In this document: positions 14,110 to 27,509 of the stretch, piece after piece | Layout: every line of letters starts with the position of its first letter | How positions within the stretch are numbered: position 1 is the stretch's first letter | Assembly (NCBI RefSeq): GCF_004339595.1 | Contig: NZ_SMFU01000007.1 | Location: 578,658-618,657 of the forward strand | Reading direction: 5' to 3' | From: Marinobacterium mangrovicola | GTDB lineage: Bacteria; Pseudomonadota; Gammaproteobacteria; Pseudomonadales; Balneatricaceae | DNA length: 40,000 nucleotides | The notes under the pieces: model-generated | What the model saw: the letters and a program-made list of their open reading frames with translations, nothing else | What the model was told of the DNA's origin: nothing | Database searches by the model: none | Translations under genes and position numbers: made by a program

Positions 14110-14145
14110 GGATTCACCCAGCGATAAAAGAAGTTGAGGAACGCG

Positions 14146-15381
14146 ATGAGCAAAAACGTGTTGATTATCGGGGCAGGGGGCGTCGCACAGGTTGTGGCGC
14201 ACAAGTGTGCCCAGAACAACGACGTACTGGGTAATATCGCAATCGCATCGCGCACACTTTCCAAGTGCGAAGAGATTGTGGCCAGTGTCAAAGAAAAGGG
14301 CGCCATGAAAGTGGATGGTCAGCTGACCGCTCACGAACTGAATGCCCTGGATGTGAACGCCACGGTCGAGTTGATCCGCGAAACCGGTTCCGAGATTGTT
14401 ATCAACGTGGGAACCGCGTTCCTTAACATGTCCGTGATGAGCGCCTGTCTCGAAGCGGAAGTGACCTACCTGGATACCGCGATCCACGAAGAGCCGGACA
14501 AGATCTGCGAGCAGCCGCCCTGGTACGCCAACTACGAGTGGAAGCGTCGCGACGAATTCAAGGCCAAGGGCCTGACCGCCATTCTCGGCGTCGGTTTCGA
14601 CCCGGGTGTGGTGAACGCCTATGCGCGCCTCGGCTGCGATATGCTGGATACCGTTGAGTCCGTCGATATCGTCGATGTGAACGCCGGTAGCCATGGCAAG
14701 TACTTCGCCACCAACTTCGACCCGGAGATCAACTTCCGCGAGTTCACCGGCACTGTGTACTCCTGGCAGAACAACGCCTGGCAGTCCAACAAGATGTTCG
14801 AAGTGAGCCGTACCGATGACCTGCCGGTGGTGGGTTCGCAGACCACCTACATGAGCGGTCACGATGAAGTGCACTCCCTGTCCCAGAACCTGGGTGTGGC
14901 CAACGTGCGCTTCTGGATGGGCTTCGGCGAGCACTACATCAACGTCTTCACCGTTCTGCAGAGTCTGGGCCTGCTCTCCGAGCAGCCGGTCATGACCGCA
15001 GAAGGTCAGGAAGTGGTACCGCTGAAAGTGGTCAAGGCCGTACTGCCGGATCCGTCTTCACTGGCGCCGAACTACACCGGCAAAACCTGCATCGGTGACT
15101 TCGTGAAAGGCACCAAAGACGGCAAGGAGAAAGAGGTCTTCATCTACAACGTTGCAGACCATAAGGAAGCCTACAATGAAGTGGGTAGCCAGGGTATCTC
15201 CTACACCGCAGGCGTACCGCCGGTCGCAGCCGCCATGCTCGTCGCCACCGGCGAGTGGGATGCCAAGACCATGGTCAACGTTGAAGAACTGGACCCGCGT
15301 CCGTTCATCAACATCCTGAACAAAATCGGCCTGCCGACCCGCATCAAGGACGAAGAGGGCGACCGTCCGGTCTCTTTTTAA
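14146..15381 (+). CDS. Carboxynorspermidine synthase/dehydrogenase (saccharopine dehydrogenase family)
   Basis: The N-terminal Rossmann motif is VLIIGAGGVAQVVAHK. At about 411 aa it is the expected size for CANSDH, and it is paired with nspC. The ATG at 14146 follows GAGGA. Confidence 0.85.
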   Translation: MSKNVLIIGAGGVAQVVAHKCAQNNDVLGNIAIASRTLSKCEEIVASVKEKGAMKVDGQLTAHELNALDVNATVELIRETGSEIVINVGTAFLNMSVMSACLEAEVTYLDTAIHEEPDKICEQPPWYANYEWKRRDEFKAKGLTAILGVGFDPGVVNAYARLGCDMLDTVESVDIVDVNAGSHGKYFATNFDPEINFREFTGTVYSWQNNAWQSNKMFEVSRTDDLPVVGSQTTYMSGHDEVHSLSQNLGVANVRFWMGFGEHYINVFTVLQSLGLLSEQPVMTAEGQEVVPLKVVKAVLPDPSSLAPNYTGKTCIGDFVKGTKDGKEKEVFIYNVADHKEAYNEVGSQGISYTAGVPPVAAAMLVATGEWDAKTMVNVEELDPRPFINILNKIGLPTRIKDEEGDRPVSF

Positions 15382-15411
15382 GCCCTTTCTAGTCAGTCTT
15401 AGCTGATGCTG

Positions 15412-15443
15412 AACGCCGCGCCACGATAGTGGGGCGGCGTTTT
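15412..15443 (+). terminator. Rho-independent terminator after the polyamine genes
   Basis: AACGCCGCGCCAC-GATA-GTGGGGCGGCGTT forms a 13-bp stem with one mismatch. It runs into TTTT. Confidence 0.7.
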
Positions 15444-15460
15444 ACTATCTCCACCCGTAT

Positions 15461-16429
15461 TCACTTCAGTCCACTCAGTGGACTCCGCACACCCTGAGCG
15501 CCTTGCTTTAATACATGGGTGTATATTTCTGTAGTCTTTACATCCGCATGCCCTAGCTGCTGTTGGACCGTTCGGATATCTACTCCCGACTGCAGCAGGT
15601 GAGTCGCAAACGAATGTCTTAGGGTATGACAGGAGACATTCTTCCTGATGCCGGATTCTCTGGCCGCTTTCTTCACAATTTTATTAAGGTTATGCTCGTC
15701 AAAGTGATGTCGCCGTAAACAGCCGCTTTCAGGATCGATACTCAAGCGAGAGGCAGGGAAGAGATAGTGCCAACCAAGCTCAAAAGGTGCGCTTGGATAT
15801 TTCCGGGCCAGTGCATCTGGCAACCATACGCCGGAATACCCATCGACAGCTTTATCAATCCCCAGGAAGGCTTCAACTTTCTTTACCTGGCTATTGAGAG
15901 GTTCAAGGAGTTCATCAGCCAAGGTTACAAGTCGGCGCTTGCCGCCTTTGCCGTAGTTCACTCGAATCTGCCGATAGTCAAAATCGATATCTTTCACTCT
16001 AAGGCGAATAAGTTCGATACGCCGCAACCCAGAGCCGTACAGCAAAGCGGCCATAAGGTAGTGGTGTCCGCTAAGCGTCGAGAGCAAGCCACTCACTTCG
16101 CTATGTGTCAAAACGACTGGCAGTTTAGGTTGCCGCTGAGACCTGCTGAAGCCAGAGATGTCGCCTACCGCTTGTTTCAGAAATTTGGTTTTCAGGAATA
16201 CGATCGCATTCAACGCCAATGCTTGGGTGCCCGCCGAGACGTTTCGCTCCGTCGCGAGAAAGGTAAGAAAACCCTCAATCTCAGTATCACCAAGCTCGGA
16301 CGGATGCCGTTTGTTACAGAACAGAATGAAAAACTTGATCCAGTACAGGTAGGAGTCAATGGTCCGCCGGCTGTAACGGTGTACACGCATAAAATTTTCG
16401 ACGGATTGAAGAAAAGGAGATCTTGCCAT
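15461..16429 (-). CDS. intI: Integron integrase IntI (tyrosine recombinase)
   Basis: Collinear with IntI1/VchIntIA as I recall them: RTIDSYLYWIKFF, RRIELIRLRVKDID, the IntI-specific insertion GVWLPDALARKYPSAPFELGWHYLFPA...RRHH, HTLRHSFATHLL, LGHADVKTTEIYTHVLKQGAQGVRSPLSGL. The R-H-R-Y catalytic residues are present. The start is uncertain (ATG at 16429 or 16447); the track ORF extends to 16555. Confidence 0.9.
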   Translation of the reverse strand: MARSPFLQSVENFMRVHRYSRRTIDSYLYWIKFFILFCNKRHPSELGDTEIEGFLTFLATERNVSAGTQALALNAIVFLKTKFLKQAVGDISGFSRSQRQPKLPVVLTHSEVSGLLSTLSGHHYLMAALLYGSGLRRIELIRLRVKDIDFDYRQIRVNYGKGGKRRLVTLADELLEPLNSQVKKVEAFLGIDKAVDGYSGVWLPDALARKYPSAPFELGWHYLFPASRLSIDPESGCLRRHHFDEHNLNKIVKKAARESGIRKNVSCHTLRHSFATHLLQSGVDIRTVQQQLGHADVKTTEIYTHVLKQGAQGVRSPLSGLK

Positions 16430-16555
16430 GTGTAACACCTCATCCATGAAATGTTTGAAAACGTTATACCCCCTGGAGCAGGCATCCGTCGAGCATGATG
16501 CCCCTTTAATAAGGAAGCATTCTTCAGAATGAGGGAAAAATCCTTTTTTGATCAA

Positions 16556-16653
16556 CGGGTTGCTTTGGGAAGGTTCAACTTCTTTGAGACTTATAAGGCA
16601 TACCCTCTAATAATTATTATGGGGCCAACGGCCCCATTAACAGGCTGTTACAC
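16556..16653 (+). other. Putative attI region with GTTACAC core (16647-16653)
   Basis: The first GTTRRRY motif between the intI 5' end and the first cassette ORF. It is followed by AAGGAGA (16658-16664) and the first cassette start. A GGGGCC-AAC-GGCCCC hairpin lies at 16621-16635. Confidence 0.5.
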
Positions 16654-16668
16654 GCACAAGGAGACATC

Positions 16669-16905
16669 GTGATTAAAACAGACCATATATCAATTCAATG
16701 CCCTCAGTGTGGACATACTGAATTCGAGCAGCCAGAAAATGTGAAGGATGACGATTTTGTAAAATGCAATAGTTGCCACTTTGAAATCATGTTAGCTGAT
16801 TTGAAAGAGGTAGGGATTGAGCAAGCTAGAGAGGTTGTTATTCCCGAAGCAAAAGCAGAAATTGAGAAAATGCTAAAGAAAGCATTCAAAGGCCGCCTCA
16901 AGTGA
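16669..16905 (+). CDS. Cassette 1, gene a: small zinc-ribbon protein
   Basis: 78 aa with a GTG start after a strong SD. It has CPQCG...CNSCH (four Cys, zinc-ribbon spacing) and then a Lys/Glu-rich helix. Confidence 0.65.
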   Translation: MIKTDHISIQCPQCGHTEFEQPENVKDDDFVKCNSCHFEIMLADLKEVGIEQAREVVIPEAKAEIEKMLKKAFKGRLK

Positions 16906-17375
16906 GTAAGTTTGAGATTCTGAGCCTAATTATTTCTACTTTAGCTGCTGTGATTTCATGTGTTTCGTTGGTGCGTACAAGAAAGCTAGCTAAAGAACAG
17001 CTCGAGCTTGAAAGAGTAACCGCTGAGTTATCTAGACTTCAAATTGAAAGCATCGCTGAAGAAAAGTCTGATAAAACCAAGCCAAAGTTTAATGTAAATC
17101 TCACGAAGTTTGGTAAGTCCTACAATTTTTATATATCAAATACTGGCCAAGGCAGCGCTTACAATGTTGATTTTGAGCTAATTGATTGTAATGACAGTCC
17201 GCTATCAACTCATGAGTTACAGGATATGTTTCCTCATCAAGAGATGAAACCAAACTCAAGAATAAAACTTATGGCCGCAATTCATATGGGTAGTCCCAGG
17301 AAATATCAGGTTAAGTTAACTTGGGAGAATGCAGACGGGGAAAAATATGATGAGACATTTTGGCCTACGCTGTAG
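16902..17375 (+). CDS. Cassette 1, gene b: membrane-anchored coiled-coil protein with a beta-rich C-terminal domain
   Basis: 157 aa. The GTGA start/stop overlap with gene a indicates translational coupling. It has an N-terminal TM (ILSLIISTLAAVISCVSLV), a heptad-like segment (KEQLELERVTAELSRLQIESI), then a C-terminal domain I do not recognise. Confidence 0.65.
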   Translation: MSKFEILSLIISTLAAVISCVSLVRTRKLAKEQLELERVTAELSRLQIESIAEEKSDKTKPKFNVNLTKFGKSYNFYISNTGQGSAYNVDFELIDCNDSPLSTHELQDMFPHQEMKPNSRIKLMAAIHMGSPRKYQVKLTWENADGEKYDETFWPTL

Positions 17376-17378
17376 CAC

Positions 17379-17450
17379 GTGTAACAAGGCGCTGTTGTCG
17401 GACTGTTTTTCCGCTGCGCTCCAAAACAGCCGCAAAGCGTGGCGTTAGCA
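17379..17450 (+). repeat. attC 1
   Basis: GTGTAAC...GTTAGCA. The arms are partly complementary (GACTGTTTTT / AAAACAGCC). Confidence 0.75.
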
Positions 17451-17457
17451 CAAAAGA

Positions 17458-17980
17458 ATGAATCAGATCGAAGCAACTAAGATTGTGGTTGAGAAAGTCA
17501 TGGCTCATAAGCCAGGATTCTCTCTAATGCTTGATTCCACGGAGGAATTTGGAAAGTGTTTTGCTTTCTACTGCCAGAATGACTCTTATGTCGACATCCG
17601 GAGATGTTTCTGATATGAGCGTAGGTCAAGGTCCTATAATTGTGTGTAAAACCACAGGTGAATGTTTTGAAACTGGTTCCACATTTTCAACTCATGAATA
17701 CGTCCATGCGTTTGAGGCATGTGGTGATCCGTATGGGAGGCCCACCGCCAGAGTTCGCATTATGGGCTGGATCGAGGGAGCGAATGCGGTCAAAGCAGTT
17801 CAATGCGTAAAAGCAGCATCTAATCTAAATCTTGCACAGGCAAAATCACATATAGATACTGTATTGAGTGGTGGGAATACAGTTGTTTGTCTAGATTCCA
17901 TAGATGAAGTTGCAGGGGTAATTCAAACTTTAAGTAAGAATGGATTTGAATCAAGACAACTTTGGAGCAACCAGTGCTAA
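17458..17980 (+). pseudogene. Cassette 2: YrhB/Imm35-like protein with an L7/L12-C-like tail, interrupted by a frameshift
   Basis: The ATG at 17458 opens MNQIEATKIVVEKV...FGKCFAFYCQNDSYV and then hits TGA at 17611. The homology continues in the next frame (track ORF 17531-17980) as SGDVSDMSVGQGPIIVCKTTGECFETGS..EYV. The pieces are collinear with E. coli YrhB as I recall it. The frame switch is at about 17588-17597. Confidence 0.6.
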
Positions 17981-18089
17981 CAAAGGGGTGCATGGGAAGC
18001 CATTATGTTGCGCAATTTTTTGCATTTGCTTCGCAAATTATCGCAAAAAATGGCTCCACTCCATGTCTCCCATGACCCAGGCGTTAAAT
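17975..18089 (+). repeat. attC 2
   Basis: TGCTAAC...GTTAAAT. Complementary arms are GGGGTGCATGGGA / TCCCATGACCC. The gene's stop codon lies inside the R'' core. Confidence 0.75.
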
Positions 18090-18108
18090 TTCAAGGAAGC
18101 ATCGAGCA

Positions 18109-18342
18109 TTGAAAAGAAAAGACTCAGATGAGGAGCAAGAAAAAGGGCGGTTAGCCTTTTGGCGCGATCCTACGGATATTGAGTTTCTTGCAAGCGAATG
18201 GAGAAAAATTCCAGAAGATGTCCCCGAACAGGTAAAAGAAACATGGGCGCGCATTGCTTTTCGAGCATCATCAGCTTTGCATAAGGCAGGAATAAAGATA
18301 GAACCCAAGTTCCCCGAAGATCATGAGAAATACAAAATTTAA
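18109..18342 (+). CDS. Cassette 3: hypothetical acidic 77-aa protein
   Basis: The only sizeable + strand ORF in this cassette. It needs a TTG start (there is no in-frame ATG). The stop codon lies in the attC R'' core. Confidence 0.4.
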   Translation: MKRKDSDEEQEKGRLAFWRDPTDIEFLASEWRKIPEDVPEQVKETWARIAFRASSALHKAGIKIEPKFPEDHEKYKI

Positions 18343-18417
18343 CAAAGCCAAGCACGATCGCACCAGCAAGCTGGTGCTGGACCTCGCTACGCTCGGCCCG
18401 TGTTGGCGGCGTTACAT
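18337..18417 (+). repeat. attC 3
   Basis: ATTTAAC...GTTACAT. The ends are nearly identical to attC 6 (AACAAAGCCAAGCAC ... CTGGACCTCGCTACGCTCGGCCYGTGTTGGCGGCGTTA). Confidence 0.8.
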
Positions 18418-18432
18418 GCCTTAGGAGATATT

Positions 18433-18765
18433 GTGCCAAGCCAAAAGGAAGTATGTAAAAAAATCGACGCAATACCGTTTCCCTCCAAAGAGAGTGAAAA
18501 ACTAGGTATAGCTGTCGAAACTATTGGCAAATTGCCAATTAATGGCTTGCGGCTCAATCCCGAGGACGGAACATGTGGCTGGTATATTTGGTGCGGCGAA
18601 GAAATGTCCGAAGACGCAGATTTTTTCAAGCCATTGCATGTCAGCCATATCTCGGAGTACCTACCTGAAGTAGAGCAATATTTATCATTGCCACCAGGTT
18701 ATAGATTTTTAGTAGCTGGCGAGTACGAGGATGTGTGGCATGATCCACAGCTCACCAGCATGTAA
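18433..18765 (+). CDS. Cassette 4: hypothetical protein, possibly Imm33/DUF2185-like
   Basis: GTG start 4 nt after AGGAGA. The motif DGTCGWYIWCGEEMSEDADFFKPLHVSHI...LPPGYRFLVA resembles the GW..W.GEE proteins I associate with Imm33/DUF2185. The family call comes from memory only. Confidence 0.55.
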   Translation: MPSQKEVCKKIDAIPFPSKESEKLGIAVETIGKLPINGLRLNPEDGTCGWYIWCGEEMSEDADFFKPLHVSHISEYLPEVEQYLSLPPGYRFLVAGEYEDVWHDPQLTSM

Positions 18766-18819
18766 CAAGTTTAGGCAATCGGACGCAGCACAGCTGCGCC
18801 GTTGCTAAAGGCGTTAAGT
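18760..18819 (+). repeat. attC 4
   Basis: ATGTAAC...GTTAAGT. Complementary arms are GTTTAGGCAATCGGACGCAGC / GCTGCGCCGTTGCTAAAGGC. Confidence 0.8.
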
Positions 18820-18829
18820 GAATGTTCGG

Positions 18830-19234
18830 ATGTCGCGAAATTTGAAGATTGAGAAAAGAGTTGCGGCCTTCCTTGGTATTGCACTCGGTTTTTTGCTGCC
18901 AGTCACCCCAGAGCTGGGCTTAGTTATCTTGGCGGCCTTTACGGACCCGTTATCCATATTCAATTGGAGCCCATGGTTCTACCCTCTAGGTTTAGTGAGC
19001 GTGGCTGGTATGCTCTCGCTTGCGATCATGAGCCCCAAGTTTAATGAAGCAACAGCATTTTTTATTTGGGCTGGCCAAGCTGTCTTCTGCGGGGGTTGGA
19101 TAGTTGGAAAGGTCTTTGTCCTTGGTCAATCATGGCTCTTTTCTGCGTGGTATTTATTATGTAGCGCAGCTTCAATATATGTAGCTTTCAAGATTCAGTA
19201 CGGCCGCAGAGAAAGTCGTGAGGCAACCACTTAA
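18830..19234 (+). CDS. Cassette 5: hypothetical four-helix membrane protein
   Basis: About 134 aa and strongly hydrophobic (AAFLGIALGFLLPV, LGLVSVAGMLSLAIM, FFIWAGQAVFCGGWIVG, SAWYLLCSAASIYVAF). The start could be ATG at 18830 or GTG at 18818. Confidence 0.6.
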   Translation: MSRNLKIEKRVAAFLGIALGFLLPVTPELGLVILAAFTDPLSIFNWSPWFYPLGLVSVAGMLSLAIMSPKFNEATAFFIWAGQAVFCGGWIVGKVFVLGQSWLFSAWYLLCSAASIYVAFKIQYGRRESREATT

Positions 19235-19313
19235 CAAGTTGTTGTAGTTTGTTCCGGCCTAAGGCCTCCACTGGACGCCCCTCTCGGGGCGCCGCTAAAC
19301 AAAAGCGTTATGA
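19229..19313 (+). repeat. attC 5
   Basis: ACTTAAC...GTTATGA. Internal hairpins are GGCC-TAA-GGCC and GCGCCCC-TCTC-GGGGCGC. The same subfamily as attC 9 and attC 10. Confidence 0.75.
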
Positions 19314-19669
19314 ATCCCTCAGATTCGAGAGAGAAAATGTATCCGGATGATGTGAATGGCGATGTGTTCAGAAGATTGGAGGAAGATAATTTCGATTTCT
19401 CTATCGAGCATCCAGTCGATTTCTATGCTATCTATGCCACCGAAGAAGAAGCTGACCTCGTTGCAAGGCAATACGCAACCGATTGGAAGAACGGACAAAA
19501 ATTTAAAAATATAGAAACAAGGCCGAGTGATGATGGTGGTATGGAGTTAGAGTTAGTCCCAATTATGATGGTTACATTTGACAATGTCGTCGCCTTTGAA
19601 AATAAACTGGCCGAGCGTACATCAAAGGTGAACGGATATTTGGATGGCTGGGGCGTTTTAAATGGCTAA
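19310..19669 (+). CDS. Cassette 6: RraB-family protein (regulator of ribonuclease activity B-like)
   Basis: 119 aa. It matches the RraB pattern: ...NGDVFRRLEEDNFDFSIEHPVDFYAIYATEEEADLVA... and a C-terminal YLDGWG (compare RraB YDGWG). The ATG lies inside the attC 5 R' core. Confidence 0.7.
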   Translation: MNPSDSREKMYPDDVNGDVFRRLEEDNFDFSIEHPVDFYAIYATEEEADLVARQYATDWKNGQKFKNIETRPSDDGGMELELVPIMMVTFDNVVAFENKLAERTSKVNGYLDGWGVLNG

Positions 19670-19671
19670 AT

Positions 19672-19759
19672 TCATAACAAAGCCAAGCACATTCTTGCAA
19701 TGCAAAAAGCGCATTGCACTGGACCTCGCTACGCTCGGCCTGTGTTGGCGGCGTTATGT
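19672..19759 (+). repeat. attC 6
   Basis: TCATAAC...GTTATGT. The ends are nearly identical to attC 3, with a different central loop. Confidence 0.8.
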
Positions 19760-19826
19760 TACCGAGTTACCCACGAAGAGTAGACACCTTCTATAGTTAG
19801 GTTTACGCCTGACGGGGAGGTGTAAG

Positions 19827-20135
19827 ATGGCCAGGAAAAAGTATCAGCACTATACCGAGGAGTTCCGACGCGAAGCGGTAAAGCGCGCGGGTCAACCTGG
19901 GAATACAGCAGCCTCGGTTGCGAAAGAATTGGGGATTCATCCGGGTCAGATCTATAACTGGAAGCGCCAGTTCAACCGCTTGTCGGAGAAGCAATTCAAC
20001 AGCCTGAATGGTGTCGACTACTCCAAGTCTGAAAGCGAAGAAGTTCGCCAGTTAAAGCGTGAGCGGGATGCGCTGAAGAAGGAGCTCGAGTTTCTAAAAA
20101 AAGCTGCTGCGTACTTTGCGAGCCAGCACGAGTAA
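19827..20135 (+). CDS. IS3-family transposase OrfA (HTH)
   Basis: MARKKYQHYTEEFRREAVKRAGQPGNTAASVAKELGIHPGQIYNWKRQF followed by a leucine-zipper-like tail, as is typical of IS3 OrfA. Confidence 0.9.
   Translation: MARKKYQHYTEEFRREAVKRAGQPGNTAASVAKELGIHPGQIYNWKRQFNRLSEKQFNSLNGVDYSKSESEEVRQLKRERDALKKELEFLKKAAAYFASQHE
20096..20103 (+). promoter_or_regulatory. Programmed -1 ribosomal frameshift site (A AAA AAA G)
   Basis: Seven A residues then G, in the orfA frame as cta-aaa-aaa-gct. The -1 frame is open from here into orfB (..KKSCCVLCEPARVKYALIQEYRGQFSIRLMCRVLKVSASGYYRW). Confidence 0.75.
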
Positions 20136-20182
20136 AGTACGCTCTGATACAGGAGTATCGAGGACAGTTTTCGATACGTCTG

Positions 20183-20989
20183 ATGTGTCGAGTGTTAAAG
20201 GTATCGGCATCAGGATATTACCGCTGGTTCAACCGGGATATCAGTTCTCGTGAGCTCAAGCGGCAGATCATGGAAGAGCAGGTCATGGATACCTTCGCCA
20301 CTTACAAAGCCCGCTATGGGGCACCGAGAATCGCCAAGGAGCTCAATGCTCTAGGCATCCCTTGTTCGGTCAATTACGTGGCTGAGATCCTCCAACGTCA
20401 CGGTGCCAGGGCTCGTAACGGCAAGGCCTTCAAGTATTCGCCGAACACCGAAGCGATGACCGGCGTGGCCGACAACCTTCTCAAACGTCATTTCAACGCG
20501 GATGGTCCAAACCAAAAGTGGACCACCGATATCACCTATATCTGGGTCAAGGATCGCTGGTTGTACCTGGCCACGGTGATGGATCTGTATTCGCGCAGCA
20601 TCGTCGGTTGGGCGCTTGATACCAGCATGACCGAACAGTTGATCACTGATGCGCTGCAAATGGCATTTAAACGTCGTGATATCGAGCCTGGTTTAATAAT
20701 CCATTCGGATCGTGGCGTCCAGTATCGTTCGAACCGCTATCAGGCCTTGATGGAGCGTCACGGCTGCCAACCCAGCATGAGTCGAAAAGGGAACTGTTGG
20801 GACAATGCAGTGATGGAGTCGTTTTTCAGTCGGCTGAAAGTGGAGCTGATCTATGCTGAACAATATCGAACAGTAGACGAAGCTAAATCAGGGATATTCG
20901 AGTACATCGAAGTATTTTATAACCGCATACGTAGACACTCAGCTTTGGACTATGTCAGCCCAGCAGAGTATGAGCGCAAATGCGCATAA
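20183..20989 (+). CDS. IS3-family transposase OrfB (DDE integrase domain; expressed as an OrfAB fusion)
   Basis: It has an rve-type DDE domain (WTTDITYI, IIHSDRGVQYRS, NCWDNAVMESFFSRLK) in the -1 frame relative to orfA. Confidence 0.9.
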   Translation: MCRVLKVSASGYYRWFNRDISSRELKRQIMEEQVMDTFATYKARYGAPRIAKELNALGIPCSVNYVAEILQRHGARARNGKAFKYSPNTEAMTGVADNLLKRHFNADGPNQKWTTDITYIWVKDRWLYLATVMDLYSRSIVGWALDTSMTEQLITDALQMAFKRRDIEPGLIIHSDRGVQYRSNRYQALMERHGCQPSMSRKGNCWDNAVMESFFSRLKVELIYAEQYRTVDEAKSGIFEYIEVFYNRIRRHSALDYVSPAEYERKCA

Positions 20990-21038
20990 TCTAGTGTCTA
21001 CTTTTTGTGGGTAGGACCAGGAGAAGTGAGGCTAGTCA

Positions 21039-21791
21039 ATGGATAGTAAATCAATAGATTCCCTTTTTAGAATTGTAAAACAAATAAATGATAGAGAGCG
21101 AGCGAATAGAAAAAACAAATCTAAGACTCCAAATAATAGACAGGTAAACAGACTTTTTATTGAGCTCGTAATTTTCCCCTTTTGCTTGGCAATCACAATT
21201 GCGCTAGCTAGGAAACTCTTTGAACTAGGTGACTGGCTTATTAATCCAGCATTAGCAATGCTTGCGCTCTCTTATATCGGGATTGTCCTACATCCGATCA
21301 TTTCTATAATTATCAACCGTAAAGCTTTTGTTCCGGGGATATTGAACCCGTTTTATTTACTTGTTGATAACGCCAAGTCATGTTCTGAAGTGGATGCAAA
21401 GCTTGTTCGCTATTTAGAGTCAAAACCTATAGAACACCTCAAGTTTTTATTGTTGGAAATCAATTCAGAAAAATCTGCATTTCAAAAGCGAATATCATTA
21501 ACCATAGGCGCAATTGAGAAAATAGGACTTCTTCCTGGATTTCTTGCAATGGCTGTAACATTATCAAAGCTAGGTAGTGGGCAACCTGAATGGGTGTATG
21601 CACTAGCTTATGCAACCCCAGCGCTTCACGTATTTGGTGTAGCTATGCACTATCTGAGATCTAGGCTTGAGAGAATGTCAAGCTTGCTAGAGTATGTAAT
21701 TGAGACTAAAGAAAGCTCCCTAACAAATCAATCAACCACCCGCCTAGCGGCGCCGGACAGCCTACGCGTTGCTTCGGTTGCCGGTTATTGA
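21039..21791 (+). CDS. Cassette 7: hypothetical membrane protein (250 aa)
   Basis: Basic N-terminus and several TM helices (LFIELVIFPFCLAITIALA, ALAMLALSYIGIVLHPIISIII, IGLLPGFLAMAVTL, ALAYATPALHVFGVAM). The last roughly 24 codons are encoded by the attC itself. Confidence 0.6.
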   Translation: MDSKSIDSLFRIVKQINDRERANRKNKSKTPNNRQVNRLFIELVIFPFCLAITIALARKLFELGDWLINPALAMLALSYIGIVLHPIISIIINRKAFVPGILNPFYLLVDNAKSCSEVDAKLVRYLESKPIEHLKFLLLEINSEKSAFQKRISLTIGAIEKIGLLPGFLAMAVTLSKLGSGQPEWVYALAYATPALHVFGVAMHYLRSRLERMSSLLEYVIETKESSLTNQSTTRLAAPDSLRVASVAGY

Positions 21792-21802
21792 AGCGTTAAG
21801 TT
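21719..21802 (+). repeat. attC 7
   Basis: CCCTAAC...GTTAAGT. The arms are partly complementary (AAATCAATCAACC / GGTTATTGAAGC). Confidence 0.65.
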
Positions 21803-21815
21803 AAAGGATGACCTT

Positions 21816-22088
21816 ATGAGCAAGGAAGATAAACCAATTCAGGTTGTAATTCTTGGGACGATATCATCTCTCGCTCTTATCTGTGTAGCTACATATATTG
21901 CAATTGCAGGCTTTAATATAGCCTCAACTGTAATTTTAGTTTCAGCTCTTAGTGGACTAGCTGTTCCAGCTGTCGTTTATGCAGATGGTGCTATTGAGTG
22001 TGTAACCGGCGTATTCGAAATGTTTATAGAAGGTCTGGTTGCAATATTTGAAGGAATTGTAGAGATAGTAGGTTCAATATTTGGATGA
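21816..22088 (+). CDS. Cassette 8: small hydrophobic protein (90 aa)
   Basis: The ATG follows AAGGATG. It has two TM-like helices and a hydrophobic/acidic tail (FEMFIEGLVAIFEGIVEIVGSIFG). Confidence 0.55.
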   Translation: MSKEDKPIQVVILGTISSLALICVATYIAIAGFNIASTVILVSALSGLAVPAVVYADGAIECVTGVFEMFIEGLVAIFEGIVEIVGSIFG

Positions 22089-22113
22089 TTTAATAATTAT
22101 ATGTATGAAACAA

Positions 22114-22198
22114 TTCATAAAAAGTTGCTAAAGTTTACTCCGGGACTTGGTCCTCCGTAGGACCGATGCCGCTTAGGCCCTTGAGCAAAATATTATGC
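22114..22198 (+). repeat. attC 8 (degenerate cores)
   Basis: TTCATAA...ATTATGC. The arms AAGTTGCTAAAG / CTTGAGCAAAAT are complementary. The same subfamily as attC 15 (TTGCTMAAGTTTACTCC). R' starts with A instead of G. Confidence 0.6.
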
Positions 22199-22211
22199 TA
22201 TTAGGTGAACT

Positions 22212-22691
22212 ATGTCAGCGCATTATAATCTATTGTTATCGCTTCCGTTGAATATATCTTCAGCTGTTGAACATTCCTCTGTCCTGGAGTTCGTCCTCAA
22301 TAAAAATAGTTCTCAGCCAGCGAATTTTCCTAATCATCCGTTCTTTGAAAAATTTAACCCAATATATCGTTTTCATAATTCTTATAAGGGGATCGTTTCA
22401 GGCGCATGGAAATCAGAGGCTTGGCTGGAAAAGGCGCCAAACGGTAATGTTTGTAACGCTGGCGTCAATCTTTGCTTACCCGGAAATAAGCTAGAGGGAG
22501 TTTGGCAAGATACCCTTCCTCTTATTCATTGGTTGGCTTCAATGTCATCGGCGCAAGGAGCTGTCGGTATTGTCGTTGCGGAAGATCTTAGCGAGGATGA
22601 ACCAATGGTTTTATTTGTTCGCCGCTCAAAGCTCTTTATTTCTACATCGAAGCATGAAGAACTTTATAATTTTGACGATGCTCTATCTTAA
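22212..22691 (+). CDS. Cassette 9: hypothetical protein (159 aa)
   Basis: The ATG follows AGGTGA. It is the single long + strand ORF filling the cassette. I do not recognise the family. Confidence 0.6.
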   Translation: MSAHYNLLLSLPLNISSAVEHSSVLEFVLNKNSSQPANFPNHPFFEKFNPIYRFHNSYKGIVSGAWKSEAWLEKAPNGNVCNAGVNLCLPGNKLEGVWQDTLPLIHWLASMSSAQGAVGIVVAEDLSEDEPMVLFVRRSKLFISTSKHEELYNFDDALS

Positions 22692-22701
22692 CCATGATAA
22701 G

Positions 22702-22773
22702 GCCTAACAAATACACAAAGTTCGCCCACTTCGTGGACTGGGGCCTCCAGGCCCCTTGCGTGGTGCGCTAGGA
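22702..22773 (+). repeat. attC 9 (degenerate R')
   Basis: GCCTAAC...GCTAGGA, with a central perfect hairpin GGGGCC-TCCA-GGCCCC. The R' core is GCT instead of GTT. Confidence 0.6.
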
Positions 22774-22781
22774 AGTCTCGA

Positions 22782-23207
22782 ATGAAGCCCACATTCCGGC
22801 ATGCGAAAGATAAGAATTTTGTTGAGCAACTGACTCTTCGAAACATGAAGCCGTACTACAAAGAACTCGGAATTCGCTGGGACCATGAGTTATTCGAGGC
22901 GAACTGGAAGGAATTCGAGAACTACGAGATAGCTATCGATAAGTGTGCGATAGGAGCCTTGCGATTGAGTCATGATAGTTGCGCTTATTAACTTCGCGAC
23001 CTTCAAATCGACCCGGATTGGCAAGATAAGGGAGTGGGGTCGCAGGCAATCAATTTTGCTATTGCTGTCGCCCAGAAAGAAGGCTTTCAATTGCTTCGAC
23101 TTCGTGTTTTTTGTGCAAACCCCGCAGTCGCTCTCTATAGGCGCTTAGGGTTCCGGATTTGCAAAACTGAAGTCGGGGTTCACTCTATGGAGCGGGAGCT
23201 GTCTTAA
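22782..23207 (+). pseudogene. Cassette 10: small GNAT-family N-acetyltransferase interrupted by an in-frame TAA (22989-22991)
   Basis: The track ORF ends ...IGALRLSHDSCAY*. The same frame continues without a start codon as LRDLQIDPDWQDKGVGSQAINFAIAVAQKEGFQLLRLRVFCANPAVALYRRLGFRICK. This is the GNAT acetyl-CoA-binding core (Q/RxxGxG/A ... A..LY...GF). Confidence 0.75.
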
Positions 23208-23289
23208 CAAGTGTATCAAATACGTTCCGGCCCAAAGGGCCTCCCACCGGACGGCCCTTAAGGGTCGCCGTTTATCCAATGCATTAGGG
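23202..23289 (+). repeat. attC 10 (degenerate R')
   Basis: TCTTAAC...ATTAGGG, with an internal hairpin GGCCC-AAA-GGGCC. It is closely related to attC 5. R' starts with A instead of G. Confidence 0.6.
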
Positions 23290-23302
23290 GAAGGAAGGTT
23301 CC

Positions 23303-23770
23303 GTGCAGAATGACTACGAAATAGCTCCAGGAAAAATACTCAAGGTGTTTTCAGCGGAAGAGACATCAGAGATTGAAAAGTCTTGGATGAACATATTCTG
23401 CAAAAATAAACAGGGATCTAATACAAAGGCATACAAGTGGCATATTTTCAGTGGTGGTGGGTATCCATCTGTTGATGGAGAAGCCGCAAAAGAAGAATAT
23501 AAAATCCAATCGGCGGCAAAGTTCGTGGTGTTACCGAACGATGGTGAAAACGCCGTTTTGACGGATTGTTTGCCCCGAGCCTGTTGTTTGAGTGATTACT
23601 ATGTATTTCCTCTCAATATGGCGTGGGTAATGGCATTTACACACGAAGATGGGTGGCTTGGTCCATATTTTGCGAAACATCAAAACTATAATGCCTTAAA
23701 TAAAGATAATTTTATGCAAATAAAAAAAGATCAACAAAAGTCTGAGGCAAAGAAGAAAGGGTGGCTTTAA
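23303..23770 (+). CDS. Cassette 11: hypothetical protein (155 aa), possibly DUF4275-like
   Basis: GTG start after GGAAGGAAGG. The motifs KWHIFSGGGYPS and YYVFPLNMAWVMAFTHEDGWLGPYF recall DUF4275-type proteins. The family call is from memory and is weak. Confidence 0.55.
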   Translation: MQNDYEIAPGKILKVFSAEETSEIEKSWMNIFCKNKQGSNTKAYKWHIFSGGGYPSVDGEAAKEEYKIQSAAKFVVLPNDGENAVLTDCLPRACCLSDYYVFPLNMAWVMAFTHEDGWLGPYFAKHQNYNALNKDNFMQIKKDQQKSEAKKKGWL

Positions 23771-23773
23771 TAT

Positions 23774-23904
23774 TGTTTAATTCAGAGCCAAGCAAGGTGC
23801 TGCAGGAGAATCGTAGTACGCTACGAAAATTTTATGGTATCGCTACGCTCTTTTTGCCATAGAACTTACTCCACTACATTGCTCTACTGACCACGACGTT
23901 AAAA
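23774..23904 (+). repeat. attC 11 (long, partly decayed)
   Basis: TGTTTAA(T)...GTTAAAA. It shares AGCCAAGCA and TCGCTACGCTC blocks with attC 3 and attC 6, but arm complementarity is weak. Confidence 0.45.
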
Positions 23905-23921
23905 GTCTTAGGTACTGAGAA

Positions 23922-24338
23922 ATGATCGGAATTGAATTTGAAGAACCAAAGCAAGAAGTTTGTGAATGTTGTGGAAATACCACAACACGGTTGACTAGGT
24001 TTGTGTATCGAGATGGGGATGCATTTGCCGTCTACTATGTGCTGTTTACAAACGGCCATGAAGATAAGTTTGCATACTCACTGATAGGTCTGGGTGATTG
24101 GGGGGAAGGGGCTGAGCCAGAAATGCGCACAGCTTTCGCAGTTAACATCTGGGATGACAATGATAATTGGGCAGTGACCGTCACGGATAAAGCAGAATCG
24201 CCCTGGAGTCACGTTGAGTTCATGGGCAAGATCCTAGATCGTGAAGCAGCCTTAGATCACCCTTGGATCAAATATGTATATCAGATCACCGATCACATAG
24301 TTGCGGAGGACAAGCCAGTAATGGAGTTCTTCGCGTGA
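23922..24338 (+). CDS. Cassette 12: hypothetical protein (138 aa) with an N-terminal CECCG motif
   Basis: The single long + strand ORF of the cassette. I do not recognise the family. Confidence 0.6.
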   Translation: MIGIEFEEPKQEVCECCGNTTTRLTRFVYRDGDAFAVYYVLFTNGHEDKFAYSLIGLGDWGEGAEPEMRTAFAVNIWDDNDNWAVTVTDKAESPWSHVEFMGKILDREAALDHPWIKYVYQITDHIVAEDKPVMEFFA

Positions 24339-24344
24339 TCCAAC

Positions 24345-24408
24345 TTGTAACAAGTCAAAGCAGCAAGGGCCTGCGGTTGGGACAGACTAAAGCACCGAGG
24401 CATTACAC
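24345..24408 (+). repeat. attC 12-like junction (degenerate)
   Basis: TTGTAAC...ATTACAC. It has a TAAC-AAG start like the other attCs, but the arms are poorly complementary and R' starts with A. Confidence 0.35.
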
Positions 24409-24423
24409 ATTGCAGGAGCAGTT

Positions 24424-24810
24424 GTGATAGTTATCTATGGAATCAAAGAACACCTTAATCCGATCAAGGCTCAGCTCTCTGAGGTCATTCACGGATGTAT
24501 GCAGTCTGTACTTGGTATGCCTGAAGACAAGCGGGCTCACCGTTTTATCCCTATGGAATCTGAGGATTTTTATTACCCCGTTGGCAGGACGCCCGCCTAC
24601 ACTGTCATCGAGATCAATATGATGCAGGGTAGAGCTCCCGAGACCCAAAAAGCTCTGATCAAGGAGCTATTCAACAAGATTGAGTCCGAGGTTGGCATCT
24701 CACCCGTGGATGTTGAAGTCACGATCAAGGAACAACCACCTCACTGTTGGGGCTTTCGAGGCATTACCGGAGATGAGGCGCGTGACCTCAAGTATTCGGT
24801 CAATGTGTAA
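24424..24810 (+). CDS. Cassette 13: tautomerase-superfamily protein (128-aa long form)
   Basis: GTG start 5 nt after AGGAG. Sequence MIVIYGIKEHLNPIKAQLSEVIHGCMQSVLGMPEDKRAHRFIPMESEDFYYP...YTVIEINMMQGRAPETQKALIKELF...ISPVDVEVTIKEQPPHCWGFRG matches the tandem beta-alpha-beta tautomerase family pattern. Confidence 0.7.
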   Translation: MIVIYGIKEHLNPIKAQLSEVIHGCMQSVLGMPEDKRAHRFIPMESEDFYYPVGRTPAYTVIEINMMQGRAPETQKALIKELFNKIESEVGISPVDVEVTIKEQPPHCWGFRGITGDEARDLKYSVNV

Positions 24811-24879
24811 CAATGTGGTCAACGGGCTGGAAACTGTGCTGAGCTCTGTGGGTGGCACCCATTACTGCTGGCGTTATAC
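24805..24879 (+). repeat. attC 13
   Basis: GTGTAAC (containing the stop codon)...GTTATAC. Arm pairing is less obvious than in the other sites. Confidence 0.5.
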
Positions 24880-24902
24880 CGTTAATGGAAAGGAAGCTTT
24901 AG

Positions 24903-25520
24903 ATGATTTCTATAGAGTTTTTACTCACCTCGCTAGTGGTGGTTCTAATTCCGGGAACAGGGGTTATATATACCGTCGCAACAGGGATCTTCGTAGGTAA
25001 ACGTGCGAGCATATTTGCTGCATTCGGATGCACCCTCGGTATAGTCCCTGCACTTTTAGCCAGTGCTTTTGGTCTTGCCGCTATCTTTCATGCCAGTGCG
25101 CTCGCATTTCAGGTGGTAAAATATACTGGTGCTTTATACTTGATTTATCTTGCATGGCAAATGTGGCGGTTTTCTTCTCCACTCTGTTTGAAAGATAATA
25201 AAGCAGGAGGGAGATACACTGACATTGTTGTCAAAGGATGTTTGATCAATATCCTAAACCCTAAACTTTCTATATTCTTTTTGGCTTTCCTGCCACAGTT
25301 TATATCTAGCAAAACCGATAGCGCTCTAGTTGGTATGATGGTCCTTGGGCTTGTTTTTATGGTTATGACCTTTGCTGTGTTTATTGTGTACGGTGTTCTT
25401 TCAGGAATTTTTAGCCATTTTATTGTTAAGTCAAAAATAGCCAGCAGTGTCATGCATAGAATTTTCGCTACAAGTTTTGCTGCGCTCGGACTTAAGTTGG
25501 CTTTTAGTGATCGGGTATAA
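24903..25520 (+). CDS. Cassette 14: LysE/RhtB-family amino-acid exporter
   Basis: 205 aa with six TM helices. It has the N-terminal LIPGTGVIYTV motif and the LNPKLSIFFLAFLPQF motif typical of LysE/RhtB translocators. Confidence 0.85.
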   Translation: MISIEFLLTSLVVVLIPGTGVIYTVATGIFVGKRASIFAAFGCTLGIVPALLASAFGLAAIFHASALAFQVVKYTGALYLIYLAWQMWRFSSPLCLKDNKAGGRYTDIVVKGCLINILNPKLSIFFLAFLPQFISSKTDSALVGMMVLGLVFMVMTFAVFIVYGVLSGIFSHFIVKSKIASSVMHRIFATSFAALGLKLAFSDRV

Positions 25521-25598
25521 CAGGATCAGGCGTAGCGACAGCTTTTTCGTTGCGGCCACGCCTCCACTACAACGCTACGCCTGTTGGCAGCGTTATAA
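25515..25598 (+). repeat. attC 14
   Basis: GTATAAC...GTTATAA. The arms are strongly complementary (CAGGCGTAGCG / CGCTACGCCTG). Confidence 0.8.
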
Positions 25599-25609
25599 GG
25601 CTTAGGTGT

Positions 25610-25876
25610 ATGGAAACTAAAAAGGCAAATATGATACTAGGGGTTGTAGTCTCTGTTCCGATAGCAGTATTTATATTGATTTATATCGTCAATCTAAGTG
25701 ATTCTCGATATACATGGGATGACATGGATCTAAACGGTGATGGTATGGTTACTTTTACTGAAGCAGAGTATGTAGGATCATCTGGTGTTAGAGAAATCGT
25801 TGTAGATGGAAAGAAGTGCTTCGAATATTTCGCATACAAAGATGGTTTGCCAATTAAAACAGTATGCGAAGAATGA
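25610..25876 (+). CDS. Cassette 15: small membrane-anchored EF-hand protein
   Basis: 88 aa with an N-terminal TM (ILGVVVSVPIAVFILIYIV) and a canonical 12-residue EF-hand loop (DLNGDGMVTFTE). Confidence 0.65.
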   Translation: METKKANMILGVVVSVPIAVFILIYIVNLSDSRYTWDDMDLNGDGMVTFTEAEYVGSSGVREIVVDGKKCFEYFAYKDGLPIKTVCEE

Positions 25877-25880
25877 TCCT

Positions 25881-25971
25881 TATAATAAATTGCTCAAGTT
25901 TACTCCAGGCCTTTGGCCCTCCTTGAGACCTACGCAGCTTCGCTGCTCAGGCCCCTTAGCAAAGCGTTATA
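25881..25971 (+). repeat. attC 15
   Basis: TATAATA...GTTATAT. Complementary arms are AAATTGCTCAAG / CTTAGCAAAGC. The same subfamily as attC 8. Confidence 0.65.
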
Positions 25972-25975
25972 TACT

Positions 25976-26449
25976 ATGAGATATTTACTGATACTTCTCG
26001 CGTTGATTTCATCCCAAGCTAATGCAGGTGTTGATCTAGTACGGGTCGATAAGTCCGAGAGGAAAATGTATCTGTTGTCTGGCGGGGAAATAGTAAAGGA
26101 GTACCATGTTGCACTTGGCGCTAATCCTAAGGGGCCCAAGCAACAAGAGGGTGATGAGCGGACGCCGGAGGGTGACTACACCTTAGATTACAAGAAGGAA
26201 GATTCATCATTCTATAGAGCAATGCATATAAGCTACCCAAATCAAGAAGATATGGCGAATGCTGAGGAATTAGATGTTCCTCCAGGTGGGTTTATCATGG
26301 TCCATGGTCAGCGTAACTGGCTAGGATGGCTTTCTCCAGTTTCGCAGCGCTTCAATTGGACAAATGGGTGTATTGCACTGACGAACGATGAAATGGATGA
26401 GTTCATGGATCTGGTTAATGTCGGTACAAAAATTGAAATTAAGTGGTAA
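25976..26449 (+). CDS. Cassette 16, gene a: exported L,D-transpeptidase (YkuD domain, YafK-like)
   Basis: Signal peptide MRYLLILLALISSQANA. YkuD catalytic region MVHG...WTNGCIALTNDEMDEF (His ... Cys). The RTPEGDY motif is also present. Confidence 0.85.
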   Translation: MRYLLILLALISSQANAGVDLVRVDKSERKMYLLSGGEIVKEYHVALGANPKGPKQQEGDERTPEGDYTLDYKKEDSSFYRAMHISYPNQEDMANAEELDVPPGGFIMVHGQRNWLGWLSPVSQRFNWTNGCIALTNDEMDEFMDLVNVGTKIEIKW

Positions 26450-26505
26450 TCCATATAAAAATCGATGAAAATTATTCAGCTACTCTGACAGGGACGTCAA
26501 AAGCT

Positions 26506-26901
26506 ATGCAAGAAAAGTTTGTTTACGTATTCTCGGGGGAGTTTGAAGATATTGACGCAGCCTGCCTCTACTCTCAGCCTCAATGGGAGCCAGAGCCAGA
26601 TGAATCAGTTTCTGATGAAGAGTACGCAGCTTGGGAAGATCGGAATCCATCCCATCAACTACGAAAGAATATCGACTCATATTTGGATGAAGATTTCATT
26701 GAAACTGTCGATTTAGATTTTCAATACCTTTCCAGCATAGGAGTTGCGGCCTCCGATATAGCTCATATCAAAGAGAATATTGTTGGGGCGAACGTACTTG
26801 TGTTGGTTTATGAGCAGGCTTTAGGTGGCTTTTCTTTAAAAGAAAAACCCGTTTCCAATTCGTCGTTAACTTATTGTGGCCAGTTCAACTTCAAACTTTA
26901 A
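26506..26901 (+). CDS. Cassette 16, gene b: acidic cytoplasmic protein, Imm22-like
   Basis: No attC separates it from gene a. VYVFSGEFEDID...SYLDEDFIETVD...ANVLVLVYE resembles the Imm22 immunity-family pattern as I recall it. The start is uncertain (ATG at 26506, or GTG at 26443 overlapping the upstream stop). Confidence 0.5.
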   Translation: MQEKFVYVFSGEFEDIDAACLYSQPQWEPEPDESVSDEEYAAWEDRNPSHQLRKNIDSYLDEDFIETVDLDFQYLSSIGVAASDIAHIKENIVGANVLVLVYEQALGGFSLKEKPVSNSSLTYCGQFNFKL

Positions 26902-26986
26902 CGCATAATAATCAATTGTAGTCACCCGCAAGCAGGCTGGGACCTCTACTGCTATGTAGCTCCAACCCCTTAATTGAGCGTTAATT
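26896..26986 (+). repeat. attC 16 (last recognisable attC)
   Basis: CTTTAAC...GTTAATT. Complementary arms are GCATAATAATCAATTG / CTTAATTGAGC. Confidence 0.7.
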
Positions 26987-27509
26987 TCAAACGAGTATCG
27001 ATCAATATATGAGCGATTTGGGCGATCTTAGTTTTAGAAACTCGGATCAGAGTCCTATTTCCTCTACTCCATTACGATGGATCCTTGGACTTAGCTGCTG
27101 AACTAATGGGTTCTAAAGCTGCGCGGGCGTATCAACCTGATGGGGTCGCTAAGAAGATCGCCACTGAATCTGACTGGCTTACTAAGCCAGTGCAACTCCG
27201 CCGTAAAACTGAGCCAGTCGCGGCTCGCTGCGGCCAGCGAGCTCATTCCCATCACTCTGTCATCTGTTGCCCCCTGGCGATCTATAATCTGGGAGCGTGA
27301 TGGAAATCTTGCTCCCGAGAACAGGCGATCTATACGGGCGCCGTTACACGGCTACCTTGCTAGCCTCCGCTGAGCTCGATTGAGCTATAGAACCCTCAAC
27401 GCAAGGTTATAAGGACAGGATTATCGAAACTCAGCTGATGCCAAACTGCGGTGAATTGCATTCGGGCTAGCGGATAACCACAAGGAAAGTGTCTGAGTAG
27501 GGGCCTGGG

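Follow-up and report, generated by a model that had tools for sequence, protein, structure and literature searches.

An apparently complete chromosomal integron and its cassette array behind the norspermidine genes of Marinobacterium mangrovicola

The locus, its integrase and its attI site

The stretch of DNA analysed here (hereafter the window) comprises 40,000 nucleotides of Marinobacterium mangrovicola, namely positions 578658-618657 of contig 1 (NZ_SMFU01000007.1), and positions given below count from the window start unless another contig or locus is named. The genome amounts to 4.98 Mb in 15 contigs, contig 1 having a size of 1.67 Mb. Behind the genes nspC and CANSDH (carboxynorspermidine synthase) the window holds a block that is very probably a complete chromosomal integron, made up of an integrase gene (intI), a putative attI site and a row of short gene cassettes separated by attC-type palindromes (Table 1). 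An earlier sequence-only reading of this DNA had proposed a sedentary chromosomal integron (SCI) at this place, in which an intact-looking intI faces away from a one-directional array, and which begins abruptly after the terminator of the polyamine operon as a block visibly richer in AT than both flanks. Each of these observations held: intI lies on the - strand, all plausible open reading frames (ORFs) between 16.67 and 26.9 kb lie on the + strand, and all model-found attC sites have the orientation expected for such an array. The stretch from the CANSDH stop (15381) to the intI stop (15461) contains a GC-rich hairpin followed by a T run. Furthermore, GC content drops between 16 and 27 kb of the window from 0.56-0.62 to 0.40-0.50; cassette DNA, not counting an insertion sequence (IS) that it contains, has a GC content of 0.434, the corresponding values being 0.587 for the flank to its left, 0.556 for that to its right and 57 % genome-wide.

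The intI gene is full-length and without internal stops, and its product yields the sole match in the genome over the cut-off of the integron integrase model TIGR02249 (437.9 bits, 173 above the cut-off of 265), whereas the XerC, XerD and XerA models gave weak secondary matches, all far under their own cut-offs. The score against NF011946 (the PRK15417 integron-integrase equivalog) was 288 bits, under its cut-off of 435. IntI aligns without gaps over residues 4-320 to residues 3-319 of VchIntIA (PDB 2a3v; 375 bits), and every catalytic residue (Arg, Lys, His-x-x-Arg, His and Tyr) is conserved in this alignment. Compared with XerC/D of the same genome, it carries insertions of 29 and 7 residues at the place of the IntI-specific domain. 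Thus, the catalytic residues and the insertion claimed by the sequence-only reading are present, and the grouping with XerC/D-type recombinases that it had named as a refutation was not observed. The closest IntI proteins are those of M. lutimaris (92 %), M. lacunae (84 %), Marinobacterium sp. YM272 (83 %) and M. ramblicola (81 %), identity to those of other Marinobacterium species and Nitrincola being 74-76 %.

The putative attI site was located by comparison between species. Homology with M. lacunae and YM272, as detected by blastn, runs through intI and the adjoining spacer and ends exactly at 16650; in three comparisons (blastn and multiple alignment) interspecies homology stops at the GTTA of 16647-16650, the multiple alignment showing a conserved block ...CATTAACAGrCTGTTA and then complete divergence after GTTA. 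From this end of homology the attI crossover would lie at G16647|TT. The conserved hairpin of the spacer (8 bp with a 3-nt loop), which is located 10 nt upstream of the putative crossover, is kept in four species, among which two compensatory changes preserve its pairing; an element bound by IntI and a terminator facing intI are both conceivable roles for it. M. lutimaris is without about 130 bp of the spacer (window 16510-16640 versus L007:9905-9925) that are present in the window, M. lacunae and YM272, and in YM272 the attI-proximal 41 bp occur a second time, some 1.5 kb inside the array (L009:8256-8296).

attC sites and cassettes

The ORFs of the array are followed by 16 imperfect palindromes of the TAAC...GTTA type, the attC sites having a length of 62-116 nt and the first of them lying 950 bp from intI. 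The earlier description was of palindromes that start with TAAC and end with GTTRRRY; the R' box reads GTTA-N3 and not strictly GTTRRRY. Folding of single-stranded DNA gave a canonical structure for the bottom (-) strand of attC1-4, 6 and 7, in which a TAAC/GTTA stem and a short unpaired spacer are followed by an L stem whose 3' ('') arm bulges out at one to three single bases, a geometry that agrees with that given for the V. cholerae repeat (VCR) and attCaadA7 (PMC5027507). A strict pattern of AAC, spacer, 4 bp, 1-nt bulge and 3 bp ... GTT occurred 425 times on both strands genome-wide, i.e. 0.043 per kb per strand, and in the 10.8-kb array seven times on the + strand, where 0.46 would be expected, and never on the - strand. 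Moreover, across 13 window sites standard pairs filled 86.7 % of cells compared to 61.8 % in shuffles, and 10 of the 11 L-stem pairs had changes on both sides, with a covariation score of 0.584 versus at most 0.097 for slid partners. A gapless inverted-repeat search and a scan needing 6-7 bp of R-box complementarity were tried as well, and neither picked out the attC sites; complementarity beyond TAAC/GTTA is not expected, because the outer R' bases belong to the next cassette. Rfam gave no match in the window, which is not evidence against attC sites.

As a model made from the window's own attC sites would be circular, and as their MAFFT alignment was poor at the 3' ends, two covariance models were trained on foreign sites, R1 on 15 attC sites from integrons of other species and R2 on 92 foreign attC sites found by R1. 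Over 74 related loci (1.15 Mb, both strands) R1 gave these 92 matches at E≤1e-4, of which 92 of 92 were on the intI strand upstream of intI, and R1 is therefore specific. In the window, R1 found nine sites at E≤0.007, all inside the array and all on the - strand; R2 found 11 sites at E<0.01 and 13 at E<0.1 (#1-7, 9, 10, 13, 14, 15 and 16), these E-values being rough, and nothing above noise elsewhere in the 40 kb. Absence of covariance-model hits had likewise been set as a refutation by the sequence-only reading, and these self-built proxies for the attC model of IntegronFinder instead returned between 9 and 13 matches. Its count of at least 16 cassettes fared less evenly, as 13 sites are supported by a model and one further site is decayed, and attC11 and attC12 are doubtful. 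The decayed site is attC8, which has no R1 or R2 match and is 66 % identical to attC15, above the maximum of 62 % among shuffled sites; judged by its letters, it is a decayed copy of attC15. R'' is AAA or AAT in attC8, attC11 and attC15.

Cassette sizes range from 328 to 1014 bp (n=16, the IS not counted). The impression that most cargo has no recognisable function was confirmed: Pfam families could be named in seven cassettes and an NCBIfam CxxC family in one more, and the remaining cassette ORFs had no significant Pfam or NCBIfam match. Neither resistance nor defence nor toxin-antitoxin cassettes were recognised in the array, and PADLOC returned nothing credible, only zinc-ribbon noise. Some genes appear damaged (Table 1), the GNAT acetyltransferase of cassette 10 being interrupted by one in-frame TAA and matching Acetyltransf_1 on its distal part. 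Decay is visible in the attI-distal half of the array, and cassettes 8-12, whose sites are missing or have mutated cores, probably form fused, immobile blocks and would not be excised one by one.

Table 1. Features of the integron locus in positions of the window; attC matches refer to the models R1 and R2
Feature	Position	Strand	Description
intI	15461-16429	-	ORF 15461-16555; likely start ATG 16429, 322 aa
intI-attI intergenic region	16430-16650	+	Conserved hairpin 16619-16637; putative attI crossover GTT 16647-16649
Cassette 1	16648-17444	+	Overlapping ORFs 16669-16905 (CxxC, zinc-binding; NF047912 small CxxC family, 40.3 bits, cut-off 37) and 16902-17375 (no assigned family); attC1 17379-17451 (R1 67.6 bits, R2 59.6 bits)
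Cassette 2	17445-18083	+	Frame split 17458-17613 / 17531-17980, gene probably frameshifted, no Pfam match; attC2 17975-18090 (R2 E=3.8e-8; fold z-score -3.7)
Cassette 3	18084-18411	+	ORF 18109-18342, 77 aa; attC3 18337-18418 (R2 E=9.8e-9)
Cassette 4	18412-18813	+	Imm33-like, ORF within 18400-18765 (PF24719 E=3.6e-41); attC4 18759-18820 (R2 E=4.9e-10; fold z-score -3.7; three single-base bulges on '' arm)
Cassette 5	18814-19307	+	ORF 18818-19234, 138 aa, hydrophobic; attC5 19228-19314 (R2 E=3.1e-8)
Cassette 6	19308-19753	+	RraB family, 19310-19669 (PF06877 E=3.8e-18); attC6 19671-19760 (R2 E=1.4e-8)
Cassette 7 (holds IS)	19754-21795	+	ORF 21039-21791, 250 aa, membrane-like, runs into attC7 21716-21802 (R2 E=1.2e-8; extrahelical G on bottom strand)
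IS3-family IS	19763-21019	+	orfA 19827-20135, orfB 20183-20989; HTH_Tnp_1 and rve Pfam matches
Cassette 8	21796-22192	+	ORF 21816-22088, 90 aa; attC8 22113-22199 (R'' AAA, R' ATT)
Cassette 9	22193-22767	+	ORF 22212-22691, 159 aa; attC9 22701-22775 (GCT triplet; R2 E=0.0092)
Cassette 10	22768-23283	+	GNAT acetyltransferase pseudogene, frame 22782-23207, TAA 22989-22991 (Acetyltransf_1 E=3.3e-9); attC10 23200-23290 (ATT; R2 E=0.0016)
Cassette 11	23284-23898	+	DUF4275, 23303-23770 (PF14101 E=1.6e-8); putative long attC11 23764-23905, doubtful (model match 23787-23904 at noise level only, E 5.7-9; fold z-score +0.3)
Cassette 12	23899-24402	+	ORF 23922-24338, 138 aa; putative attC12 24343-24409, doubtful (ATT; no R1 or R2 match, no canonical fold)
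Cassette 13	24403-24873	+	Tautomerase family, 24424-24810 (PF14552, Tautomerase_2, E=2.2e-22); attC13 24803-24880 (R2 E=0.0071)
Cassette 14	24874-25592	+	LysE-type translocator, 24903-25520 (PF01810 E=6.4e-30); attC14 25513-25600 (R1 E=0.0073, R2 E=0.038)
Cassette 15	25593-25966	+	ORF 25610-25876, 88 aa, weak EF-hand-like motif (EF-hand_1 E=0.013, below cut-off); attC15 25878-25974 (R'' AAT; R2 E=1.4e-7)
Cassette 16	25967-26980	+	YkuD L,D-transpeptidase domain 25976-26449 (PF03734 E=5e-21); second ORF, acidic protein within 26443-26901 (DUF4284/Imm22 E=0.041 only); attC16 26894-26988 (R2 E=0.096)
Tail between last attC and resumed M. lutimaris homology	26989-27185	.	No Pfam match for ORFs there; may be a cassette remnant
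Fossil of second intI C-terminus	29086-29175	-	Between EAL and LysR stops
nspC	13012-14109	+	TIGR01047 412 bits (cut-off 409); core-genome context, outside integron
CANSDH	14134-15381	+	Saccharopine dehydrogenase Pfam domains; core-genome context, outside integron

History of the locus, known systems and competing explanations

An intI gene directly behind CANSDH is also found in M. lutimaris, M. lacunae and M. ramblicola, and this comparison with related genomes, which had been recommended as a check, supports the term sedentary. None of the window's cassette proteins recurs in the related arrays, except for one homologue of 36 % identity. Of the three species with this location, only M. lutimaris has a comparable array, and its content is different. 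Its flanks align with those of the window (84-93 % identity) as far as 15443 and then from 27185 onwards, its intI at 93.6 % (blastn); between them, the 10.7-kb array of the window is matched in position by 1.3 kb with two unrelated cassettes and degenerate attC sites. At the level of single sites, attC1 and a site of M. maritimum (locus L024) share 85 % identity, and homologous attC sites exist for attC9 and attC16 in a second array on contig 8 of the same genome (see below), for attC16 also in locus L014.

YM272 has a different order, namely nspC, CANSDH, EAL, intI, attI and array. Compared with the window, this genome looks as if 15444-27241 had been removed and an intact integron set behind EAL, and about 23 kb separate its intI from genes homologous to the window at 31.7 kb and beyond. 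In the window, the DNA that separates the EAL stop from the LysR stop holds a fossil of the C-terminal end of a second intI; 16 of 26 residues agree with the C-terminus of IntI, and the catalytic Tyr is replaced by Asp. The fossil occurs in M. lutimaris too (L007:~6640-6730), and the intact YM272 intI ends at the same place behind EAL, which indicates that the platform was duplicated or re-seated around the EAL gene. YM272 CANSDH is 98 % identical to that of the window, its IntI only 83 %. The simplest reading of these sequences would be two old platforms flanking EAL that were lost alternately. In a sample of nine genomes of the genus, intI exceeded the model cut-off in six, some with two to three copies, and in G001, G005 and G008 no intI was found behind CANSDH. 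In G008 (contig C12, locus L088) the genes that come within about 240 bp after CANSDH are ones from which M. mangrovicola has it separated by 44 kb (C1:594036-638478), and the integron thus stands at the edge of a larger variable region.

With regard to known systems, the locus is an ordinary integron, a further example of a well-known system. The elements of a complete integron appear to be in place, comprising the IntI profile and insertion, the catalytic residues, attC sites within 4 kb, attC structure and attI. For SCIs an operational threshold of at least 11 attC sites has been given (PMC11023631), and the array reaches it by a narrow, borderline count under R2. Its site is chromosomal, as it lies on a 1.67-Mb contig with polyamine biosynthesis genes on one side and the EAL and LysR genes on the other, and M. 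lutimaris, M. lacunae and M. ramblicola carry intI at the same site; high similarity among the attC sites, another hallmark of SCIs, is lacking, since their identities are near the shuffled level. The V. cholerae SCI (VchIntIA/VCR) is similar in its integrase (roughly 55-60 % identical by eye, gapless), in having a divergent intI, an attI and co-oriented cassettes with cargo mostly without assigned function, and in the VCR bulges, of which there are up to three, single-base and 3 bp apart on the '' arm (G16/T20/T24; PMC5027507). It also holds an IS3-family element of 1261 bp without target duplications inside its array (PMC11023631), as does the window with one of ~1.26 kb. In contrast, V. cholerae has about 179 cassettes (16 here), near-identical VCRs (about 52 % identity here), an extrahelical G (C in attC1-6) and W157 (Asn here), and in the window neither toxin-antitoxin cassettes were recognised nor was a LexA box found. 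Other Marinobacterium and Nitrincola integrons have IntI proteins of 74-92 % identity, an attI block ending CTGTTA and shared attC types in common with the window, and differ from it in cassette content throughout. With mobile class 1-3 integrons it shares the logic of the platform and heterogeneous short attC sites (62-116 nt), whereas the conserved chromosomal locus, without Tn402/Tn21 context and without a recognised resistance cassette, sets it apart, as does the NF011946 score under the cut-off. Our literature search found no dedicated integron study for Marinobacterium.

The mechanism that we envisage follows work on VchIntIA and IntI1 (PMC5027507, PMC2095811). IntI would bind the folded bottom strand of attC (here the - strand), recognising the TAAC/GTTA stem of the R box, the unpaired central spacer and the L-box stem with its one to three extrahelical bases on the '' arm, and would cleave between A and C of the bottom-strand AAC. 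Cassettes would be excised by attC x attC and inserted at attI by attI x attC recombination, and those proximal to attI would be expressed from a putative promoter in the intI-attI region. Within a subclade of the genus the platform is inherited vertically at the nspC/CANSDH locus, and its cassettes are completely replaced from one species to the next.

We are highly confident that what this Marinobacterium species carries here is a complete chromosomal integron, and, going by its gene and site content, it is probably still functional. Several observations weigh against this view. Our attC models are proxies of our own making, and three of the 16 proposed sites (#8, #11 and #12) fail them; the crossover triplet is mutated in four (ATT in #8, #10 and #12, GCT in #9). 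Pairwise identity of the attC sites is mostly 45-60 % (about 52 %), close to shuffled sequences with a mean of 50 % and a maximum of 62 %, which only few pairs exceed, for instance 3/6 (76 %) and 5/10 (69 %). As first extrahelical base of the bottom strand, where G is usual in attC sites (PMC5027507), attC1-6 and most sites of relatives have C. No Pc or Pint was found in a scan of 15300-16800 for consensus sigma-70 promoters, a weak TTGAGA-N18-TAATAA candidate at about 16585-16614 being seen by eye only, and the intI-attI spacer holds no LexA box (13 near-matches overall versus 12.8 expected). Finally, the M. lutimaris intI (L007:10001-10981) is a pseudogene with three in-frame stops and a small insertion, and selection on the platform may therefore be weak in this lineage. 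Several of these points would fit a real integron that has become a functional fossil, in which the platform no longer recombines and the array is frozen and decaying. Such an explanation could draw on the attI-distal half, where the four mutated triplets (attC8, 9, 10 and 12), two undetectable sites (attC8 and attC12), the nonsense-mutated GNAT gene and the IS insertion are found, as well as on the split frame of cassette 2, the want of an SOS box and the dead intI with its 1.3-kb array at the same locus in M. lutimaris. Nevertheless, we consider it unlikely: the intI of M. mangrovicola has kept its full length and every catalytic residue and contains no stops, the first seven attC sites counted from attI are canonical and high-scoring, and the array is wholly different from that of the sister species despite flanks of 84-93 % identity, which requires evolutionarily recent cassette traffic.

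A mobile integron, or a part of a horizontally acquired island, would be harder still to reconcile with the locus, and we regard it as very improbable. The attC heterogeneity resembles that of mobile integrons, about 44 kb lie between CANSDH and the next genes shared with G008, three same-genus genomes have no intI behind CANSDH, YM272 carries its platform on the other side of EAL, and several congeners have two or three intI copies. Against this, no transposition, conjugation or plasmid genes lie next to intI, which abuts the CANSDH terminator in four species (that of the window, M. lutimaris, M. lacunae and M. ramblicola) on what is here a contig of 1.67 Mb, and IntI (81-92 % identity) is conserved to a similar degree as the flanking CANSDH (88-99.5 %) or less. 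To the notion that there is no integron, with a XerC/D-like recombinase lying by chance beside intergenic palindromes of the repetitive extragenic palindromic (REP) type, we give practically no credence. The weak secondary XerC, XerD and XerA matches and the failure of simple gapless inverted-repeat searches might speak for it, yet it is refuted by the TIGR02249 score with the Xer models far below their cut-offs, the match to 2a3v, the IntI insertion and the palindromes' matches to foreign attC models, with polarity and covariation.

The complete chromosomal integron that we favour adds, for a marine genus, an example with exact coordinates for attC sites, cassettes and the putative attI crossover. 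Furthermore, one locus offers a natural series, ranging from an intact platform with 16 cassettes, through a dead one with two (M. lutimaris) and one on the other side of EAL (YM272), to no platform, and such a series can show gain, re-seating and loss of chromosomal integrons. The attC sites with C as first extrahelical base and those with mutated triplets are natural substrates for the rules of attC recognition. In VchIntIA, W157 contacts the extrahelical G (PMC2095811); the equivalent residue of IntI is N158, and in the rest of the clade it is Ile, Met, Val or Phe. A co-evolution of residue 158 with the first extrahelical base was considered, as C occupied about 58 % of bulges for non-Trp integrases and about 23 % for Trp, and is not claimed, because the loci are close kin and the pattern scan was crude, leaving only a trend. 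As no resistance or defence cargo was recognised, the array has no immediate applied significance.

An IS3-family element next to attC sites, and the edges of the array

The main new lead of our study is the IS3-family element, apparently of an attC-homing lineage, that splits the array. Inserted into the leader of cassette 7, it starts 9-10 nt 3' of the G|TT of attC6, has the same orientation as the cassettes and is present as a single copy in the genome; its ends were set by comparing it with the copies that L014, L023 and L019 carry in their arrays, and no target duplication was found for the window copy. Relatives of 65-91 % identity occur in ten other loci, from other Marinobacterium species as well as from further afield, namely these three arrays (L014:6925-8196, L023:844-2140 and L019:4094-4284) and L098, L102, L103, L105, L109, L111 and L112, which belong to other genera and families of the same order. 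In all 11 loci the junction at the left IS end reads GTTA, five variable bases, then C|CGAGT-, CGTGT- or CAAGT-TACCCAC, i.e. a fixed offset of 9-10 nt 3' of the G|TT crossover, and the transposase always points in cassette direction. The attC sites upstream of the 11 copies are unrelated to one another; the adjacent attC was confirmed by R2 in L098, L105, L109, L111 and L112 and by R1 in L019 and L023. The right flanks are unrelated too, which argues against a conserved IS-bearing cassette, and 4-bp duplications were seen only in L103 and L105.

Judged by these junctions, it is a serious but still tentative possibility that the lineage consists of IS3-family (DDE) elements homing to integron attC sites. 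No account of IS3-family elements that target attC came up in our literature search. The IS1111-attC group (IS110 family) likewise has a fixed position relative to attC and a single orientation, and differs by its DEDD transposase, whereas the window element has an IS3-family DDE transposase and inserts outside the attC stem. IS1397 and ISKpn1 are IS3-family elements that target REP sequences, and in being an IS3-family DDE element associated with a structured palindrome the window IS resembles IS1397. If target specificity were true, attC-homing elements would comprise two families that differ in mechanism, IS1111-attC and this lineage, and elements of the latter could block, bridge or delete cassettes or supply outward transcription to distal cassettes.

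At the left edge, the CANSDH product scored 451 bits against NF043000, under the cut-off of 800, and is 87-99.5 % identical across seven same-genus genomes. At the right edge, the genes of the flank are a CSS-motif EAL phosphodiesterase (stop 29045) and then a LysR regulator (stop 29182), and blastn homology resumes at 27185 (M. lutimaris) and 27242 (YM272). An AAC...GTT element of 160 nt (27190-27349) was considered as a terminal attC and rejected, being mostly conserved EAL upstream region in M. lutimaris and partly so in YM272, with neither terminal core kept in M. lutimaris and no attC model match. Elsewhere in the genome, contig 8 carries an integrase-less array at 52.4-56.5 kb (L094:2472-6450), with about 7-10 R1 sites on one strand and short co-oriented ORFs. 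R1 further detected an attC pair on contig 2 (332968-333746; L095:1968-2747) and single attC-like matches on contig 1 at 867.5, 976.3 and 1243.5 kb.

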